Below the pieces are notes generated by a model, which worked only from the letters and a program-made list of their open reading frames with translations, did no database searches and was not told where the DNA came from. Shown here piece after piece: positions 9,256 to 32,592 of a DNA stretch of 34,082 nt (positions within the stretch are counted from its first letter, which is position 1; each line of letters starts with the position of its first letter). Origin of the DNA: a virus (lineage: Duplodnaviria; Heunggongvirae; Uroviricota; Caudoviricetes). The position numbers and the translations under genes are program-made. Location of the stretch: IMG/VR virus record IMGVR_UViG_3300045988_014597, positions 1-34,082 of that record; one strand, given 5' to 3'.

Positions 9256-9260
9256 AACTA

Positions 9261-9285
9261 AGGCCCCGTTTGGGGCCTTTTCTCT
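9261..9285. terminator. Bidirectional intrinsic terminator between convergent tail and replication modules
   Basis: AGGCCCC-GTTT-GGGGCCT hairpin flanked by an A-run upstream and a T-run downstream. Confidence 0.7.
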
Positions 9286-9424: not shown

Positions 9425-9612
9425 TCGAACTCCATAAAATCACCATTTACCGACTCTGTGTAAATTAGTCCTGTTCTATCATCGTAGCACGCACCCCAAC
9501 GATTGGCAGTGTTATCCATCACCACGAATTGCCCATCACCTTTGTACTCCGCAGCATAATAATTACCTTCATCGAAAACACCTATAGTAGAACTTACGCA
9601 AAACAGTTTCAT
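9421..9612 (-). CDS. Hypothetical protein, 63 aa
   Basis: ORF in the reverse-strand operon, contiguous with the helicase gene. Confidence 0.45.
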   Translation of the reverse strand: MKLFCVSSTIGVFDEGNYYAAEYKGDGQFVVMDNTANRWGACYDDRTGLIYTESVNGDFMEFE

Positions 9613-11033
9613 TTCTTACCTCGTCTCTTCATGTAATTAAGCAATTCTTCCTGTACTGATTTCTTCTCGTCGGTACGCGCGGCAACAACCTCGTCCAGCG
9701 TGTCTTTAGCGACGATGTGATAGAGGAACACCGGGCGCTCGTGGCCTGCCTGTTTCTGGCGTACGGGACCTATACGCTCGACAACCTGCAAATAGTGCTC
9801 AAGGTTCCAGCCTTGCGAGATGAACGCCAGATGATGCCCGCCGTCCTGTAAATTCAAACCATGGCCCGCTGACGCAGGATGTACGCATAGGATTTCGATT
9901 TCTCCACGGTTCCACGCTTCCATCTGCTTATTACCCTTAGCGCCTTTGGCGAATGCCTGGGCCTGCGGGAATCTCTTAAGGATGCGCTCCAGTTCGTGCT
10001 TAAACTGATAAGCCACAAGCAACGGCGCACCCTGTAACTCCTCGACAATGGACTCAAGCGCATCCAGTTTCGTGTCGTGCACTTTCTCCCAGTCTTTCGT
10101 TGCTTCTCCATCAGGCCCCGACACATACACGGCACCAGAAGCAATCTGCAGACACTTCGACGTCTTCGCCGCCGCGTTAGCCGCTTCAACTTCCCCGCTC
10201 TCGAGTTCCGCGAATAGCTTCTCCTCCATATCGATGTACGCCTGACGCGCTTTCTTCGGCAGGTCGATTTCAACCGGTACAATAATCGGCGCTTCACAGC
10301 CGAACCATTCGGCGGCGTCAATCGTGAGACTAATGTCCTTCATCTTCTGATGAATTTCATTATCTGCGCCCGGGCGTGCATGGTATTCACGGGCCATCGC
10401 TGACTTACCTTTCTGTACCGAGTTGAACCAGCGGTCGGTGAATGCTGTGTACGATGAACCAAGTCGCTCGCCTGCGTCGATAAACCAGTTCTGCCCCCAC
10501 AAGTCCTTGAGGCCGTTCGGTGATGGTGTACCTGTCAGGTTAATGAACCGCTTAACCTTACCGAACGCCACTTTACTAAGCGCCTTTGCCCGCTTGCTGC
10601 CGCCTGAACGGCTGCGGAATGATTTCAGCTTCGTGCTTTCATCGGCAACAATAACTGTAAAAGGCCAGTCGTCTTTGCCGTAGTAGTCAATCAGCCACTC
10701 GATAACTTCGTAGTTGGTACAAATCACATTGGCGTCAGACTCCAGCGCCGCGATACGGCGCTTCTCTGAACCTGTCGCATCTACGACATTCAGACACGGG
10801 AATTGCCATTTCTCTTGTTCTGCTGGCCATGTGCCGGACGCAACGCGCAGCGGGGCGAGTATTAACACGCGGTCATCGTCCGTAAGTTGCCCATTGCGAA
10901 ACAGGCGGTTGAGTACCCACATTGTCGACGAGGTCTTGCCGCCGCCCATACCGCACCAGATATTGCAACGTGGGTGCTGTAGTATAAACGACGTCATTAT
11001 TTTCTGGTACTCGCGCCTTTGAAACTTAGACAT
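9609..11033 (-). CDS. SNF2/DEAD-like ATP-dependent helicase, 474 aa
   Basis: Walker A CGMGGGKTS and a DExx box (VIVADEST), plus a C-terminal helicase region. Confidence 0.8.
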   Translation of the reverse strand: MSKFQRREYQKIMTSFILQHPRCNIWCGMGGGKTSSTMWVLNRLFRNGQLTDDDRVLILAPLRVASGTWPAEQEKWQFPCLNVVDATGSEKRRIAALESDANVICTNYEVIEWLIDYYGKDDWPFTVIVADESTKLKSFRSRSGGSKRAKALSKVAFGKVKRFINLTGTPSPNGLKDLWGQNWFIDAGERLGSSYTAFTDRWFNSVQKGKSAMAREYHARPGADNEIHQKMKDISLTIDAAEWFGCEAPIIVPVEIDLPKKARQAYIDMEEKLFAELESGEVEAANAAAKTSKCLQIASGAVYVSGPDGEATKDWEKVHDTKLDALESIVEELQGAPLLVAYQFKHELERILKRFPQAQAFAKGAKGNKQMEAWNRGEIEILCVHPASAGHGLNLQDGGHHLAFISQGWNLEHYLQVVERIGPVRQKQAGHERPVFLYHIVAKDTLDEVVAARTDEKKSVQEELLNYMKRRGKK

Positions 11034-11709
11034 GATTAGCCTCGTAAACTGCTTTTGCGAAACCCCGCGGAGTAAGGCTGCGGATTGTTTTTGTCCGCAC
11101 TGATTTACCGCCTAATTTATTGTGTTGGTCTGAGTACCCATCACCAACGGCAACACATGATTTAACGGGCATAACAAAACCGTTACCAGCCCAAATACAT
11201 GTCTTCTTAGGGTACGCGTCCCGAGGTTTTATGTATTCAGGGAACATTGGATGCGTGTCGTCTTCCGGTAAATACCCGCCGTATTCGTACGGATTGAATA
11301 CATAATCAGGCTTACGCCATAAAGACGAAAGAACGCTAACCGGGTTCTCAATCATATAAGGTACGTTGTACTTTTTAGCAAGACGCGCCGCCACTTTGCA
11401 TGTAATCACGGCCTCTACCTGAAACGTTGGATTCTTCTTCCGTTTCGTTTCGAAATGCGCAGCACCACTAACGGCTAAATCTGTGCACGGAGGGAACGCG
11501 AAAATAATATCCGGCGCAACGTCGAAGTCGAATTTATTATCAATCCACGCGTTTATATAGTGGATGTTCTCGTGTTCAACTTTCGAACCCAATCGCGCGT
11601 AGTCGCCGTGGTCGGCACCGTCGTAGTTGAAACAATAGCAAGTATGGCCCGCTTCTGCCCACGGTTGGGCCATGAGGCCCGAACCGTCGAACAATGACCA
11701 GATAATCAT
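11026..11709 (-). CDS. Compact DNA (cytosine-5) methyltransferase-like protein, 227 aa
   Basis: C5-methyltransferase signature order: motif I LFDGSG, PC motif FAFPPCTDLAVSG, ENV-like motif MIENP, C-terminal RSLTPRGFAKAV resembling motif IX. Very short, so the target-recognition domain must be minimal. Confidence 0.6.
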   Translation of the reverse strand: MIIWSLFDGSGLMAQPWAEAGHTCYCFNYDGADHGDYARLGSKVEHENIHYINAWIDNKFDFDVAPDIIFAFPPCTDLAVSGAAHFETKRKKNPTFQVEAVITCKVAARLAKKYNVPYMIENPVSVLSSLWRKPDYVFNPYEYGGYLPEDDTHPMFPEYIKPRDAYPKKTCIWAGNGFVMPVKSCVAVGDGYSDQHNKLGGKSVRTKTIRSLTPRGFAKAVYEANHV

Positions 11710-11897
11710 TTCAACACCAGAACTAACTCTTTACGTCCAAACGCCGTAACGTTACCGGTTACATCTTCGATAACCAGTTTACCGTTCGACTCGACGTATA
11801 CCGTATCAACGGCAACAGGACGACGTGTCTTAACGTTGAAAATCATGTCACCCGGTACGATGTCACGTGCTGGTTTGCGGTCGTATTCGTGTTTCAT
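11706..11897 (-). CDS. Hypothetical protein, 63 aa
   Basis: ORF directly downstream of a family A promoter, AAGGA-type RBS; stop overlaps the next start. Confidence 0.5.
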   Translation of the reverse strand: MKHEYDRKPARDIVPGDMIFNVKTRRPVAVDTVYVESNGKLVIEDVTGNVTAFGRKELVLVLK

Positions 11898-11908
11898 TTC
11901 TCAATTCC

Positions 11909-12214
11909 TTATATTGTTGGTGTATGACTACTATAATAGTTCGCTATTAGGTCGTCAACCTGTTTAAACGACCCGACGACAAAAACATTTGCGCCACGTT
12001 TGCGCATACGCTCATGTTCCCTCAGCTGGTGAGGGTCTGGCTTCGTATTTTCGTCTTTCTTAACCTCGACGAACCAGACGATGCCTCCGGGGAGAATTAC
12101 CAGGAGGTCAGGGGCCCCCACTCTATTTTCGTACGACAATTTGCGTACGAGGCCACCGAGGGCCTCAAATCGCTCTTTTGCGTATTTCTGGATGCGCCCC
12201 TCAGGCGTACTCAT
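11909..12214 (-). CDS. VRR-NUC domain nuclease (PD-(D/E)xK), about 101 aa
   Basis: GAPDLLVILPGG...FVEVKK pattern. ATG at 12214 preferred over the upstream alternative start used by the ORF track. Confidence 0.65.
   Translation of the reverse strand: MSTPEGRIQKYAKERFEALGGLVRKLSYENRVGAPDLLVILPGGIVWFVEVKKDENTKPDPHQLREHERMRKRGANVFVVGSFKQVDDLIANYYSSHTPTI
11929..11957 (-). promoter_or_regulatory. Family A sigma70-like promoter (TTGACG-N17-TATAGT) with embedded palindrome AATAG-N4-CTATT
   Basis: Reverse strand reads TTGACGACCTAATAGCGAACTATTATAGT; -35 at 11952-11957, -10 at 11929-11934, palindrome at 11934-11947. Confidence 0.6.
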
Positions 12215-12300
12215 AATACGCACCCCTCACGTTTCGTATGTTCAATACCGCAGCGCGGACAGATTCGACAGTCTTCTTCGTAGAACCAGTAAATTTTCAT
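12211..12300 (-). CDS. Small zinc-ribbon-like protein, 29 aa
   Basis: MKIYWFYEEDCRICPRCGIEHTKREGCVL, with a CxxCxxC cluster; ATGA overlaps at both ends. Confidence 0.3.
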   Translation of the reverse strand: MKIYWFYEEDCRICPRCGIEHTKREGCVL

Positions 12301-22000: not shown

Positions 22001-22195
22001 ATGAGCCCGTATAACAAATTTCGCTTACGCCGTCTTGTTGGTGGTCTGCGCGCCGCCGAGTTTGGTGTTGAATGTTGGGAAAAGGCGAAATATACCCCAT
22101 GGAAGTCGTGGCATTTGGTTCATGCTAAGGCGGTAGCACAGTACCGTGAGTACAAGTTAAACAGTTTCCTTAAGCACCACGGGGTTGAGTTATGA
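22001..22195 (+). CDS. Hypothetical protein, 64 aa
   Basis: GGAGG RBS five nt upstream of ATG 22001. Confidence 0.45.
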   Translation: MSPYNKFRLRRLVGGLRAAEFGVECWEKAKYTPWKSWHLVHAKAVAQYREYKLNSFLKHHGVEL

Positions 22196-22353
22196 GAGAA
22201 GCATTTGAACGGTGGGCCGTCGTAGAGGGTCTGCCGGTTAACAAGGGTTCGAAGAAAGAGTACCTGACCGTTAAGACACGTCTTGCGTGGCGGGCGTGGA
22301 AAGCTGGTGTGCAATTTCGTGCTGGTGTAACAGGTGGTGTAACAGGTCAATAG
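22192..22353 (+). CDS. Small hypothetical protein, 53 aa
   Basis: ATGA overlap with the upstream stop; too short for the ORF track. Confidence 0.35.
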   Translation: MREAFERWAVVEGLPVNKGSKKEYLTVKTRLAWRAWKAGVQFRAGVTGGVTGQ

Positions 22354-29206: not shown

Positions 29207-30679
29207 ATGTTAACTATGAACGGTCAGAATCAGGGTGTTAAGACTAAACACCGGGAGTGGCTGCATCACTTCGATAAATGGCAGAAGGTGCGCCATGCGC
29301 TTGAGGGAGACCTTATTCGCTATCTTCGCAACGTCGGAAAGAATGAGCCGGACCCGACCTACGCAGCCCAGCGCCAGGAAGAATACGAGAACGGTGCTAT
29401 CTGTTACAACTTCACTAAACGTACCCTGGCGGGGATGGTGGGGTCGGTGATGCGCAAAGACCCTGAGCAGATTATTCCGCCTGAGCTTGAGTATCTGTTA
29501 CGCAACGCCGACGGTTCCGGTGTCGGGCTGTGGCAGCACGCGCAAGACACGCTGATGGAGATTGACTCGGTGGGCCGTGGCGGGTTGCTGGTGGACGCCC
29601 CGGAGACAGCTGCGGCAACGGCCGCCGAACAGAACGCGGGGTTATTAAACCCGACAATCGCATTCTATACCGCGGAGAACATCATCAACTGGCGACTAAC
29701 CCGCATCGGCTCCGTTAACCGTGTGACGATGGTCGTGTTACGTGAGGTGTGGGAATACTCAGAACCGGGCGCAGAGTTCGAAACAAAATTCGGTGAGCAA
29801 TACCGTGTCCTCGATTTAATTGACGGGCGCTACCGCCAGCGCATTTACCGCTTCGATGCAGAAGGTGGCGCACAGGGTGAAGTAAAAGAAATATTCCCGG
29901 AACTTGGCGAACAGTTGCGCGGTAGAATCCCGTTCACGTTCATTGGGGCGAGCAACAACGATGCGACCATCGATGACGCTCCTTTGCTGCCGTTGGCTGA
30001 ACTTAATATCGGGCACTTCCGTAACAGTGCGGACAATGAAGAATCCAGCTTCGTTGTAGGCCAGCCCACTCTGTTCATCGCCCCCGGCGAGAACATGAGT
30101 ACGGAACAGTGGAAAGAAGCCAACCCTCACGGCGTGCGCATGGGGTCGCGCTCAGGCCATAACATCGGGTATGGCGGTAATGCGTTTCTGGTTCAGGCAG
30201 AGGAGAACAACCTGGCCAAACAGAACATGCTGGATAAAGAGAATCAGGCCATCCAGATTGGCGCGCAGCTTATCACCCCGACGCAGCAAATAACCGCTGA
30301 ATCAGCCCGCCTGCAACGAGGCGCCGACACGTCCGTTATGGCAACAATCGCACGGAACGTAAGCATGGCATATACCGATGCGTTGCGCTGGGTTGCTGCG
30401 ATGCTAGGGTTGAGTGAAGGCACAGAGATTGAGTTCAAACTTAACATGGAGTTCTTCCTGCAACCGATGACCGCTCAGGACCGTGCTCAGTGGATGGCGG
30501 ATATTAACGCGGGCCTGCTACCGGCTACCGCTTACTATGCGGCATTGCGTAAGGCTGGCGTAACTGACTGGACGGACGAGGACATTCAGAACGCTATAGA
30601 GGACGCTCCGTTGCCGTTGGGCGCGGTTACTCAGGTGGCGGGGGAGATTCCTCAGTCGGCGCAGCATCAACAGGAGTAA
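29207..30679 (+). CDS. Portal protein, 490 aa
   Basis: Size and position immediately after the large terminase; acidic C-terminal region. Confidence 0.75.
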   Translation: MLTMNGQNQGVKTKHREWLHHFDKWQKVRHALEGDLIRYLRNVGKNEPDPTYAAQRQEEYENGAICYNFTKRTLAGMVGSVMRKDPEQIIPPELEYLLRNADGSGVGLWQHAQDTLMEIDSVGRGGLLVDAPETAAATAAEQNAGLLNPTIAFYTAENIINWRLTRIGSVNRVTMVVLREVWEYSEPGAEFETKFGEQYRVLDLIDGRYRQRIYRFDAEGGAQGEVKEIFPELGEQLRGRIPFTFIGASNNDATIDDAPLLPLAELNIGHFRNSADNEESSFVVGQPTLFIAPGENMSTEQWKEANPHGVRMGSRSGHNIGYGGNAFLVQAEENNLAKQNMLDKENQAIQIGAQLITPTQQITAESARLQRGADTSVMATIARNVSMAYTDALRWVAAMLGLSEGTEIEFKLNMEFFLQPMTAQDRAQWMADINAGLLPATAYYAALRKAGVTDWTDEDIQNAIEDAPLPLGAVTQVAGEIPQSAQHQQE

Positions 30680-30684
30680 AATGG

Positions 30685-30706
30685 AAAGGCCCCATTATGG
30701 GGCTTT
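30685..30706. terminator. Bidirectional intrinsic terminator between the portal gene and the convergent methyltransferase gene
   Basis: AAAGGCCCC-ATTAT-GGGGCTTT; the methyltransferase stop codon lies in the loop. Confidence 0.65.
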
Positions 30707-31447
30707 AGCTTTATATGCTTCAGATATGCGTCTTCTGGCTATACGGAAGTAGTCGCGGTCTAGTTCCATACCTATAAACTTCCGGTTTGTGTTCGCACAC
30801 GCAACTCCGGTTGTCCCGCTACCCATACAGTTATCAAGAACTGTATCCCCTTCGTTTGTGTATGTTTTAATCAGGTATTCCATGAGTGCTACTGGCTTTT
30901 GTGTCGGGTGTACTGTGCCACCCTCATTATCAAAACGTAAAACAGAATCTGGGTATCCCGTTTGCGTCTGACGATACGTATCTTTGTGAGAAGGCCGGGT
31001 GTTAACGAAGGCCCTGTCTTTCCTAATATTGGTAAGGGTTACGTCACACTGCCTGACCCCTTGCGGGTTGTATGCCATACGGCGTTCACTTTTATTCGCT
31101 GTGGTCCCTTTGCTGAAAACCGCGATTTCCTCATGCCCTCTTAATGGCTTATTTTTAGCATTAAATACATCACCTTTTCTGCTCTTCACCCATATCCAGC
31201 AGTATTTAAACATATCCATATTTGACGCTATAAGGGCTGTGGTGAACGGCTGCGCACAGGTTAAAACTATAGCACCACGGCCCGTTATTATTCGGGAATA
31301 ATGAAACCATAGTTGGTCAAATGGAAGCACACTATCCCACTTACATGAAGTGGTGCCATAAGGTAAATCGCACAGTATAAGGTCGATACTTTTGTCCGGT
31401 ATGCCGGCCATCAACTCCAAACAATCCCCACGTTTCAAAGTAAACAC
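30695..31447 (-). CDS. DNA methyltransferase, N6-adenine / N4-cytosine family, 250 aa, GTG start
   Basis: Catalytic tetrapeptide region LILCDLPYG (a DPPY variant) N-terminal to the SAM motif VLDNCMGSGTTGVA; GGAGG RBS; own family B-type promoter. Confidence 0.8.
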   Translation of the reverse strand: MFTLKRGDCLELMAGIPDKSIDLILCDLPYGTTSCKWDSVLPFDQLWFHYSRIITGRGAIVLTCAQPFTTALIASNMDMFKYCWIWVKSRKGDVFNAKNKPLRGHEEIAVFSKGTTANKSERRMAYNPQGVRQCDVTLTNIRKDRAFVNTRPSHKDTYRQTQTGYPDSVLRFDNEGGTVHPTQKPVALMEYLIKTYTNEGDTVLDNCMGSGTTGVACANTNRKFIGMELDRDYFRIARRRISEAYKAKAP

Positions 31448-31475: not shown

Positions 31476-31504
31476 ATAGTACCCTATTATATTGGTGTCT
31501 GCAA
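31476..31504 (-). promoter_or_regulatory. Family B-type promoter (TTGCAG-N17-TACTAT) with embedded palindrome GAATAG-N4-CTATT, driving the methyltransferase
   Basis: Reverse strand reads TTGCAGACACCAATATAATAGGGTACTAT; palindrome at 31474-31488. Confidence 0.6.
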
Positions 31505-31548
31505 ATATTATTTTTATGCGTTACACTGTCGATACTACAGGAGGGCCT

Positions 31549-32592
31549 ATGAGCTTACTTACATCCTTAATCAGCCACCAGATATGGCTGCAACGCGCCG
31601 CATCCGGTGAAGTGAAAGACCTCACACCGTTCATTAAGGAGATGCGGGACGAAATCAAACGGCAGGTGCTGTTATTCGGCGACGATGGCCGTAGCACTGC
31701 GCGACTGAATAAACTGTTACGCGACCTCGAAGAAGCACTGACCGGGCTTACAGGTGACTGGCAAACAAAGCTGACAGAAGACCTTAAGGATCTGGCGGCG
31801 TATGAGGCTGAGTGGAATGTGAAGACACTGACCGCCAACGTTAACACGGAATTTGTTACACCTACCGCCGAACAGGTGTGGGCCGCTGCCGAGTTTCAGC
31901 CTCTGTCACTTAGTGACAAGCCTGTTGACTTCACTAAGCTGATGTCAGGTTGGGGTGAAGCGGAGGTCGCGCGCCTGGTAACTGGCGTTAAGATGGGCTT
32001 TGTACAGGGCCAGACAACGCGGCAGATTGTTAAAAGTGTTGTCGGCGCTGGCGGGCTGGCTGACATCTCCGAGCGTAACGCCGCTACAGTAATACGTACC
32101 GCACTGTCCCACGTATCCAACGAAGCCCGTAACGAGACGTACCGCCAGAACGACGACATCATCGAGAAATACGAGTGGGTGTCGACGCTGGACAGCCGTA
32201 CCAGTACGATTTGCAGGGCCAGAGACGGGATGACGTGGGAAATCGGTAAAGGTCCGAGGCCCCCAGCCCATCCGAATTGCCGAAGTACCACTGCGCCCGT
32301 AATCAGTTCGGAGTTCGACTTCCTCGATAAAGGCGCAAAACGCGCGGCTAAAGGCGCAGACGGCGGCACTCAGGTAAGCGCAGACACCACTTACTACGAG
32401 TTCCTGAAACAACAACCAGCGTGGTTTCAAGATGAAGCGCTCGGCCCGGTGCGAGGTAAGATTTTCCGTAACAGCGGTATAACGCCGGAAGAGTTTCGCG
32501 TAATATCTGTAGATGGTTTCGGGAATCCGCTGACGCTTAAGCAGATGGCGGAACTCGATAAACGTGTTGCTGATTATCTGAAAGGGGAATAA
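31549..32592 (+). CDS. Head morphogenesis protein (SPP1 gp7 / Mu F-like), about 347 aa
   Basis: C-terminal signature YEWVSTLDSRTSTICRARDGMTW...PPAHPNCRSTT; GGAGGG RBS before ATG 31549. Confidence 0.85.
   Translation: MSLLTSLISHQIWLQRAASGEVKDLTPFIKEMRDEIKRQVLLFGDDGRSTARLNKLLRDLEEALTGLTGDWQTKLTEDLKDLAAYEAEWNVKTLTANVNTEFVTPTAEQVWAAAEFQPLSLSDKPVDFTKLMSGWGEAEVARLVTGVKMGFVQGQTTRQIVKSVVGAGGLADISERNAATVIRTALSHVSNEARNETYRQNDDIIEKYEWVSTLDSRTSTICRARDGMTWEIGKGPRPPAHPNCRSTTAPVISSEFDFLDKGAKRAAKGADGGTQVSADTTYYEFLKQQPAWFQDEALGPVRGKIFRNSGITPEEFRVISVDGFGNPLTLKQMAELDKRVADYLKGE

Follow-up and report, generated by a model that had tools for sequence, protein, structure and literature searches.

The 34,082-nucleotide stretch of viral DNA considered here (the window; positions 1 to 34,082 of IMG/VR virus record IMGVR_UViG_3300045988_014597, Caudoviricetes) carries on its minus strand, at 11026-11709, a gene for a compact protein of 227 residues. 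Motifs and homology argue strongly that the product is an active orphan C5-cytosine DNA methyltransferase of a short, Dcm-like phage family, which would draw on S-adenosylmethionine (SAM) to form 5-methylcytosine (5mC). This view is carried by the core motifs and fold of the class, by strong conservation of the catalytic residues, and by a homologue from phage K42 whose product is 5mC. For the target we lean modestly, by analogy with host Dcm, toward the inner C of CCWGG.

The gene is already known, as are its annotation and activity class, and the window adds another Kagunavirus copy. An earlier note on this DNA had implied novelty; cytosine C5 methyltransferase annotations already exist for proteins of 98% identity. 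The closest of them, from Salmonella phage skrot (98.2% identity), is labelled 'putative DNA cytosine C5 methyltransferase', and the gene is a routine, annotated part of Guernseyvirinae, Dhillonvirus, Drexlerviridae, Vequintavirinae, and other phages.

Gene, motifs and family

The reading frame opens with ATG, and was found both in the list of open reading frames (ORFs) and by direct reading of the letters. It contains the four sequence elements that the earlier note had singled out as hallmarks of C5-methyltransferases, in the canonical order which that note described:

11026-11709, minus strand: predicted C5-cytosine DNA methyltransferase gene, orphan, phage Dcm-like, 227 residues (ORF, motifs, homology)
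11677-11694, minus strand: motif I, LFDGSG, residues 6-11 (direct reading)
11485-11496, minus strand: motif IV, FPPC, residues 72-75, with the putative catalytic Cys75 (direct reading)
11341-11349, minus strand: motif VI, ENP, residues 121-123 (direct reading)
11203-11208, minus strand: K168/K169, in the motif VIII region (sequence)
11059-11082, minus strand: C-terminal RSLTPRGF, residues 210-217 (hand-checked against the letters)

Motifs I (F7-D-G-S-G11), IV (P74-C75), and VI (E121-N122-P123) stand in canonical order. RSLTPRGF is one conserved C-terminal element; one alignment pairs it, at low confidence, with motif IX of Dcm, and another with the recognition loop of DNMT3A. To ask whether it represents motif IX or X, C-terminal fragments were scanned against Pfam, with no match.

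The family itself is large. PHROG 757 ('DNA methyltransferase') matches residues 1-226 with an E-value of 7.5e-87; a large protein collection holds 7,184 homologues (E≤1e-3); and an exhaustive search of representatives places them in 2,043 clusters at 50% identity. Together with the residue conservation described below, these figures put the ORF far above chance. Among 50,697 phage records, tblastn finds the protein in 1,523 (Escherichia 576, Klebsiella 521, Salmonella 109, and others), with at least 80% of its length covered in 1,475. Most of the 150 cluster representatives listed have 200-260 residues, so that short length is a stable family trait rather than a truncation. The earlier note was right that the protein is far shorter than typical enzymes: M.HhaI has 327 residues and Escherichia coli Dcm has 472.

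Conservation was counted over 116 family representatives of at most about 62% identity. Residues C75, E121, N122, and P123 are kept in 109-114 of the 116, and each of these, as well as K168 and R210, is present in at least 90%. The near-invariant positions are G21, P73, C75, G82, K89, A100, E121, N122, P123, P140, D164, Y166, K168, T170, W173, P181, R210, P214, and G216. Strong constraint thus falls on the catalytic Cys and ENP; it falls likewise on the loops 131-181 and 200-217, which must stand in for a recognition domain. Across the wider family, motif I reads F/Y-D-x-T/S-G and motif IV reads F/W/Y-PPC.

Two departures from the consensus were noted. The acidic residue of motif II (position 28) is Asp in 103 of the 116 representatives; the window protein and the active enzyme of the KarlJaspers type have Asn instead. 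At position 75, Ser replaces the catalytic Cys in five representatives.

Characterised relatives and proposed mechanism

The most informative relative comes from phage K42, a KarlJaspers/Bas06-like member of the Drexlerviridae that is near-identical to KarlJaspers (MZ501090). The KarlJaspers gene bas06_0055 has 711 bp and encodes a protein of 236 residues, within PHROG 757, annotated as 'Dcm-like C5 cytosine methyltransferase'; the window protein aligns with it from end to end at 57% identity (E 4e-96). [quoted passage not shown] By mass spectrometry coupled to liquid chromatography (LC-MS), 5mC was high on the retron's msDNA (multicopy single-stranded DNA) taken from cells with K42 Dcm; it was low with the empty vector and with a variant carrying C82A, E128A, K175A, and K176A together (10.1101/2023.08.16.553469). 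These four residues align with C75, E121, K168, and K169 of the window protein, and all four are conserved. Altering either C of the CCTGG in the msDNA stem-loop abolished defence, and such a Dcm is present in 34 of 35 Ec86-sensitive phages (10.1101/2023.08.16.553469).

The two enzymes share their compact single-domain size, their conserved residues, and the Asn at the motif II position (CFNYDDADHG in KarlJaspers), and both genes lie in an early or replication block near a helicase gene. They differ in setting: K42 and KarlJaspers belong to the Drexlerviridae and the window to the Guernseyvirinae (Kagunavirus); and the window gene overlaps that of an SNF2 helicase, whereas the KarlJaspers gene is two small ORFs away from a different helicase.

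A second relative, gp52 of Pantoea phage AAS23, is 54% identical to the window protein. The AAS23 authors report that it matches Shigella Dcm in HHpred at 99.7%; on the strength of digests with a set of restriction enzymes, EcoRII among them, they conclude that AAS23 virion DNA is Dcm-methylated (PMC8004638).

These comparisons suggest a mechanism. The amino-terminal Rossmann half (F7-D-G-S-G, N28, and D63) would hold SAM; Cys75 of motif IV (PPC) would attack C6 of a flipped-out cytosine; Glu121 of motif VI (ENP) would protonate N3; and the methyl group would pass to C5. The basic K168/K169 segment may stand in for the motif VIII arginines. As a single compact domain, the protein presumably would recognise DNA through loops of the catalytic domain, and possibly through oligomerisation as in DNMT3. 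Made from the leftward replication operon, it would modify newly replicated phage DNA and, in passing, the host's DNA and msDNA. Methylation of CCWGG would then protect the phage from restriction enzymes that cut this site, while exposing it to systems of the retron Ec86 type that sense the modification. An anti-restriction role is plausible.

Site counts in the window are silent on this point. CCWGG occurs 55 times, against an expectation of 48.6 ± 6.5, and so is not depleted; this abundance is neutral and uninformative, and is compatible with protected sites.

Site recognition and competing explanations

The earlier note had considered that a predicted structure might lack a Rossmann methyltransferase fold; the catalytic-domain fold of C5-methyltransferases was found. 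An alternating strand/helix core extends through the strand at 170-175, and residues 176-227, after this motif VIII strand, form a loop (176-191) followed by three short helices (192-199, 204-210, and 215-225). Some 40 residues separate K168 from R210, compared with about 135 between motifs VIII and X in M.HhaI and about 100 in DNMT3A. By secondary structure and residue spacing, the 227-residue protein contains neither a separate small domain nor a conventional target-recognition domain. The earlier suggestion that there is room for only a minimal recognition domain holds, about 50 residues remaining beyond the motif VIII strand. Because only a loop and three short helices follow that strand, recognition would have to come from loops of the catalytic domain.

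Canonical C5-methyltransferases (PF00145; M.HhaI, M.HaeIII, and E. coli Dcm) are 100-245 residues longer, and have a small or target-recognition domain, a QxRxR motif, and a GN motif, none of which is recognisable in the window protein. The family profile was compared by hhalign with M.HhaI, DNMT3A, E. coli Dcm, and a small canonical alignment. (The M.HhaI, DNMT3A, and Dcm sequences were verified against the PDB; the small alignment also included an M.HaeIII sequence.) Motifs I, IV, and VI aligned consistently, and the C-terminal 60 residues inconsistently and at low confidence. DNMT3A gave the best E-value (2.2e-4), followed by M.HhaI (0.12) and Dcm (0.59); the differences are small, but this order fits the structural ranking, in which the DNMT3 enzymes are the closest neighbours. 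The spellings SLFDG and PCxDL are common to the family profile and DNMT3. Nonetheless, the catalytic domains of DNMT3A and DNMT3B are only 11-17% identical to the window protein; and DNMT3 works as a DNMT3-DNMT3L tetramer that reads CpG.

Several observations weigh against an active, CCWGG-specific methyltransferase. PF00145 matches only residues 3-101, at 16.4 bits (E 0.0064), below its gathering cut-off of 22 bits; the profile searches that the earlier note had proposed thus gave strong support through PHROG 757 but only a marginal match to the canonical Pfam model. An NCBIfam scan of the protein found no match, and the PDB contained no significant sequence match to the protein alone or to profiles built from 33 and from 116 of its family's sequences. 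Canonical motif VIII (QxRxR) is not recognisable in the protein, the corresponding segment being R163-D-A-Y-P-K168-K169-T170, with lysines and Thr for arginines; nor is motif X (GN). In the K42 study, CCWGG was assumed as the target on the model of host Dcm, with mutagenesis of msDNA as the one support; moreover, the K42 enzyme triggered the retron in dcm+ MG1655, where the empty vector gave low msDNA 5mC, and the enzyme was itself toxic (10.1101/2023.08.16.553469). The AAS23 digests did not exclude the host's own Dcm (PMC8004638). Finally, work on the BASEL phages found such methyltransferases to be abundant in Drexlerviridae, with no simple link to restriction resistance.

The CCWGG assignment is consequently held less firmly than the activity: it draws on the analogy with host Dcm, on msDNA mutagenesis, and on digests that left room for methylation by the host; and the K42 enzyme is toxic and acts on msDNA that the Dcm of MG1655 leaves largely unmethylated. 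The triggering of the retron in a dcm+ host whose empty-vector control had little 5mC, together with the toxicity, hints that the substrate range of the K42 enzyme differs from that of host Dcm.

The only rival with real support accepts an active C5-methyltransferase, but one with shorter, relaxed, or structure-dependent specificity (subsites of the CCW or CWG type, hairpin or single-stranded DNA) in place of strict duplex CCWGG. We regard this as a minority view, though one to be taken seriously. Such specificity would follow from the absence of a target-recognition domain, given how little chain lies beyond motif VIII; the nearest structural neighbours, the DNMT3 enzymes, read only CpG; and the behaviour of K42 Dcm in dcm+ MG1655, where it methylated msDNA and triggered Ec86, points the same way, as does its toxicity when expressed alone. 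Literature searches turned up no study that determined the methylome or specificity of the short phage Dcm-like family directly, and no genome-wide mapping of its specificity. Against this, defence was lost when either C of the msDNA CCTGG was changed; the AAS23 authors inferred methylation of the Dcm type from their digests; and the more than 2,000 clusters are strongly conserved in all of their non-catalytic loops, as fits a single defined target. The earlier note had proposed minimal specificity; the limited published data point instead to the Dcm site CCWGG, though it was never directly mapped.

A broader proposal concerns the family as a whole, and is put forward tentatively. As C5-methyltransferases that lack a recognition domain, its members may read DNA unconventionally, by way of loops in the catalytic domain or as a DNMT3-like dimer, or they may have a specificity looser than that of Dcm, with a preference for hairpin or replicating DNA. 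They might also be kin to the DNMT3 catalytic domain, as a lineage of prokaryotic viruses. If true, looser specificity or a hairpin preference would explain both the toxicity and why the phage enzyme, rather than host Dcm, methylates msDNA.

That the protein is catalytically dead, acts mainly in DNA binding or regulation, or modifies RNA as DNMT2 does, is very improbable. The Asn in motif II is shared with the active K42/KarlJaspers enzyme; strong conservation extends over the catalytic Cys, ENP, and the SAM-binding half; and the K42 enzyme acts on DNA.

Least probable is a repurposed fold with another chemistry, as the earlier note had entertained, in which a CmoX-like carboxymethyltransferase would use host carboxy-SAM to begin a cytosine hypermodification. 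CmoX, compared here by its published description (PDB 8YF3; PMC12783734), is a crystallised chain of 372 residues with the signature SPPC and a carboxylate-binding Arg350, encoded next to cmoA and an amide ligase gene. The window protein has FPPC and its family F/W/Y-PPC, in contrast to that signature (PMC12783734). Neither cmoA nor a gene for an amide ligase, TET enzyme, or glycosyltransferase appears among the window ORFs scanned or in the annotated genome of the related Raoultella phage RP180. R210 and R215 are conserved in the C-terminal segment, but alignments disagree about which residue matches Arg350 of CmoX, at the position of the motif X Asn. DNMT3A has Arg at that position (GRS) and still uses SAM. 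LC-MS against a standard shows 5mC as the product of the K42 enzyme, and the four co-mutated residues of that enzyme are conserved in the window protein. On the FPPC spelling, the missing companion genes, and the product of the homologue, this candidate was rejected.

The compact methyltransferase domain also turns up in other architectures. It lies within large helicase-type proteins of uncultured phages (BFVD A0A6J5SE15, 1397 residues, and A0A6J5NPY6, 1126 residues), where it shows 24-26% identity and a TM-score of 0.64-0.65. Two metagenomic proteins of about 400 residues, P0260 and P0262, combine the domain with a long, low-complexity, acidic amino-terminal extension that gives them a eukaryote-like or giant-virus-like look.

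Genomic setting and meaning

By nucleotide identity (about 91% to Raoultella phage RP180) and gene order, the window is that of a Kagunavirus-type siphophage. Over the 2.7 kb surrounding the gene, 461 records match, with nucleotide identity of 88-91% to RP180, to Escherichia phages SZH-1, UTEC10, and JSSK01, and to many Jersey-like phages of Salmonella. RP180 is placed in Kagunavirus (Guernseyvirinae), and its gene order is that of the window: helicase, 'DNA methyltransferase', resolvase, and DNA polymerase. In a Kagunavirus transcriptome, a C-5 cytosine methylase gene is expressed together with the polymerase.

Other features of the window discussed below are as follows:

9260-9279, no strand assigned: G+C-rich hairpin with a T tract, terminator-like (8 pairs, 6 of them G-C)
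9609-11033, minus strand: SNF2-family helicase, directly downstream of the methyltransferase gene (PF00176, E 2.4e-12; PHROG 62, E 3e-168)
11706-11897, minus strand: ORF of 63 residues, directly upstream (PHROG 4879, E 5e-46, full length)
11909-12223, minus strand: small endonuclease or Holliday-junction-resolvase-like gene, two genes upstream (PHROG 93 'endonuclease', E 8.4e-34; PHROG 5702 'Holliday junction resolvase', E 2.1e-20)
30695-31447, minus strand: predicted N6/N4 DNA methyltransferase, beta-class, 250 residues, unrelated to the C5 enzyme (PF01555 N6_N4_Mtase, E 2.1e-28; PHROG 67, E 1.4e-78)
1654, 8175, 13983, 16599, 22865, 27375, and 31789: GATC sites (site count over window positions 1-34082)

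Between about 20.7 kb and 9.28 kb every gene runs leftward, and the methyltransferase gene lies in this replication block, as the earlier note had it. The ATG of the SNF2 helicase gene (11033) sits 8 nt inside the 3' end of the methyltransferase gene. At the other end, the TGA of the 63-residue ORF overlaps the methyltransferase ATG (ATGA, 11706-11709), an arrangement that makes translational coupling possible. The earlier picture of a gene coupled between helicase and nuclease therefore stands for the helicase overlap but not for the nuclease, which is separated from it by the small ORF. A Pfam scan of the nuclease product gave no match. The RP180 interval that matches the 63-residue ORF (22102-22319) carries no annotated feature, although the PHROG 4879 family is conserved.

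The hairpin at 9260-9279 stands exactly where the rightward tail-spike gene (end 9255) meets the leftward replication operon. It likely is the terminator of the transcript that carries the methyltransferase gene, and probably acts in both directions; no terminator-like site of similar strength occurs within 11026-11900.

An obligatory, DNMT5-like partnership with the SNF2 helicase was considered and rejected: gene neighbourhoods vary by phage family, and K42 Dcm works alone from a plasmid. In Dhillonvirus, a helicase gene is followed by the methyltransferase gene; in Drexlerviridae, a different helicase lies 0.7 kb away; in Henunavirus, the neighbour is a primase/helicase; and in Phapecoctavirus, no helicase is found near the methyltransferase gene.

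The match of 30695-31447 to PF01555 bears out the earlier claim that the window encodes two DNA-modification enzymes. This second product contains the motifs CDLPYG and HPTQKP, and its gene is antisense between a portal-like gene (29207-30679) and a Mu-F-like head-morphogenesis gene (31492-32592). Kagunavirus relatives match both flanks at 88-91% nucleotide identity but not the gene itself, and among the 50,697 phage records its best homologue, in Stenotrophomonas phage CUB19, reaches only 64.8% identity. On these comparisons, it looks like a lineage-specific insertion.

GATC is nearly absent from the window: it has seven sites, where dinucleotide shuffles predict 110 ± 10.5 and a Markov model 114.8 (z about -10). 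CTAG likewise falls short, at 22 against 53.7 expected (z -4.3). This avoidance of GATC and CTAG coexists with a phage-encoded N6/N4 methyltransferase.

As a discovery, the compact C5 enzyme carries little weight, being a routine annotated gene with a close homologue already characterised. It does have practical consequences for work with the phage: the DNA probably is modified with 5mC, which would bear on restriction mapping, on cloning in mcrBC+ strains, and on base-calling by bisulfite or nanopore. Moreover, how an enzyme of 227 residues selects its site without a target-recognition domain is a question for structural enzymology, and could yield a very small cytosine methyltransferase module that can be programmed or fused. 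For the phage itself, the modification may bring sensitivity to defence of the retron Ec86 (Eco1) type and to modification-dependent nucleases.

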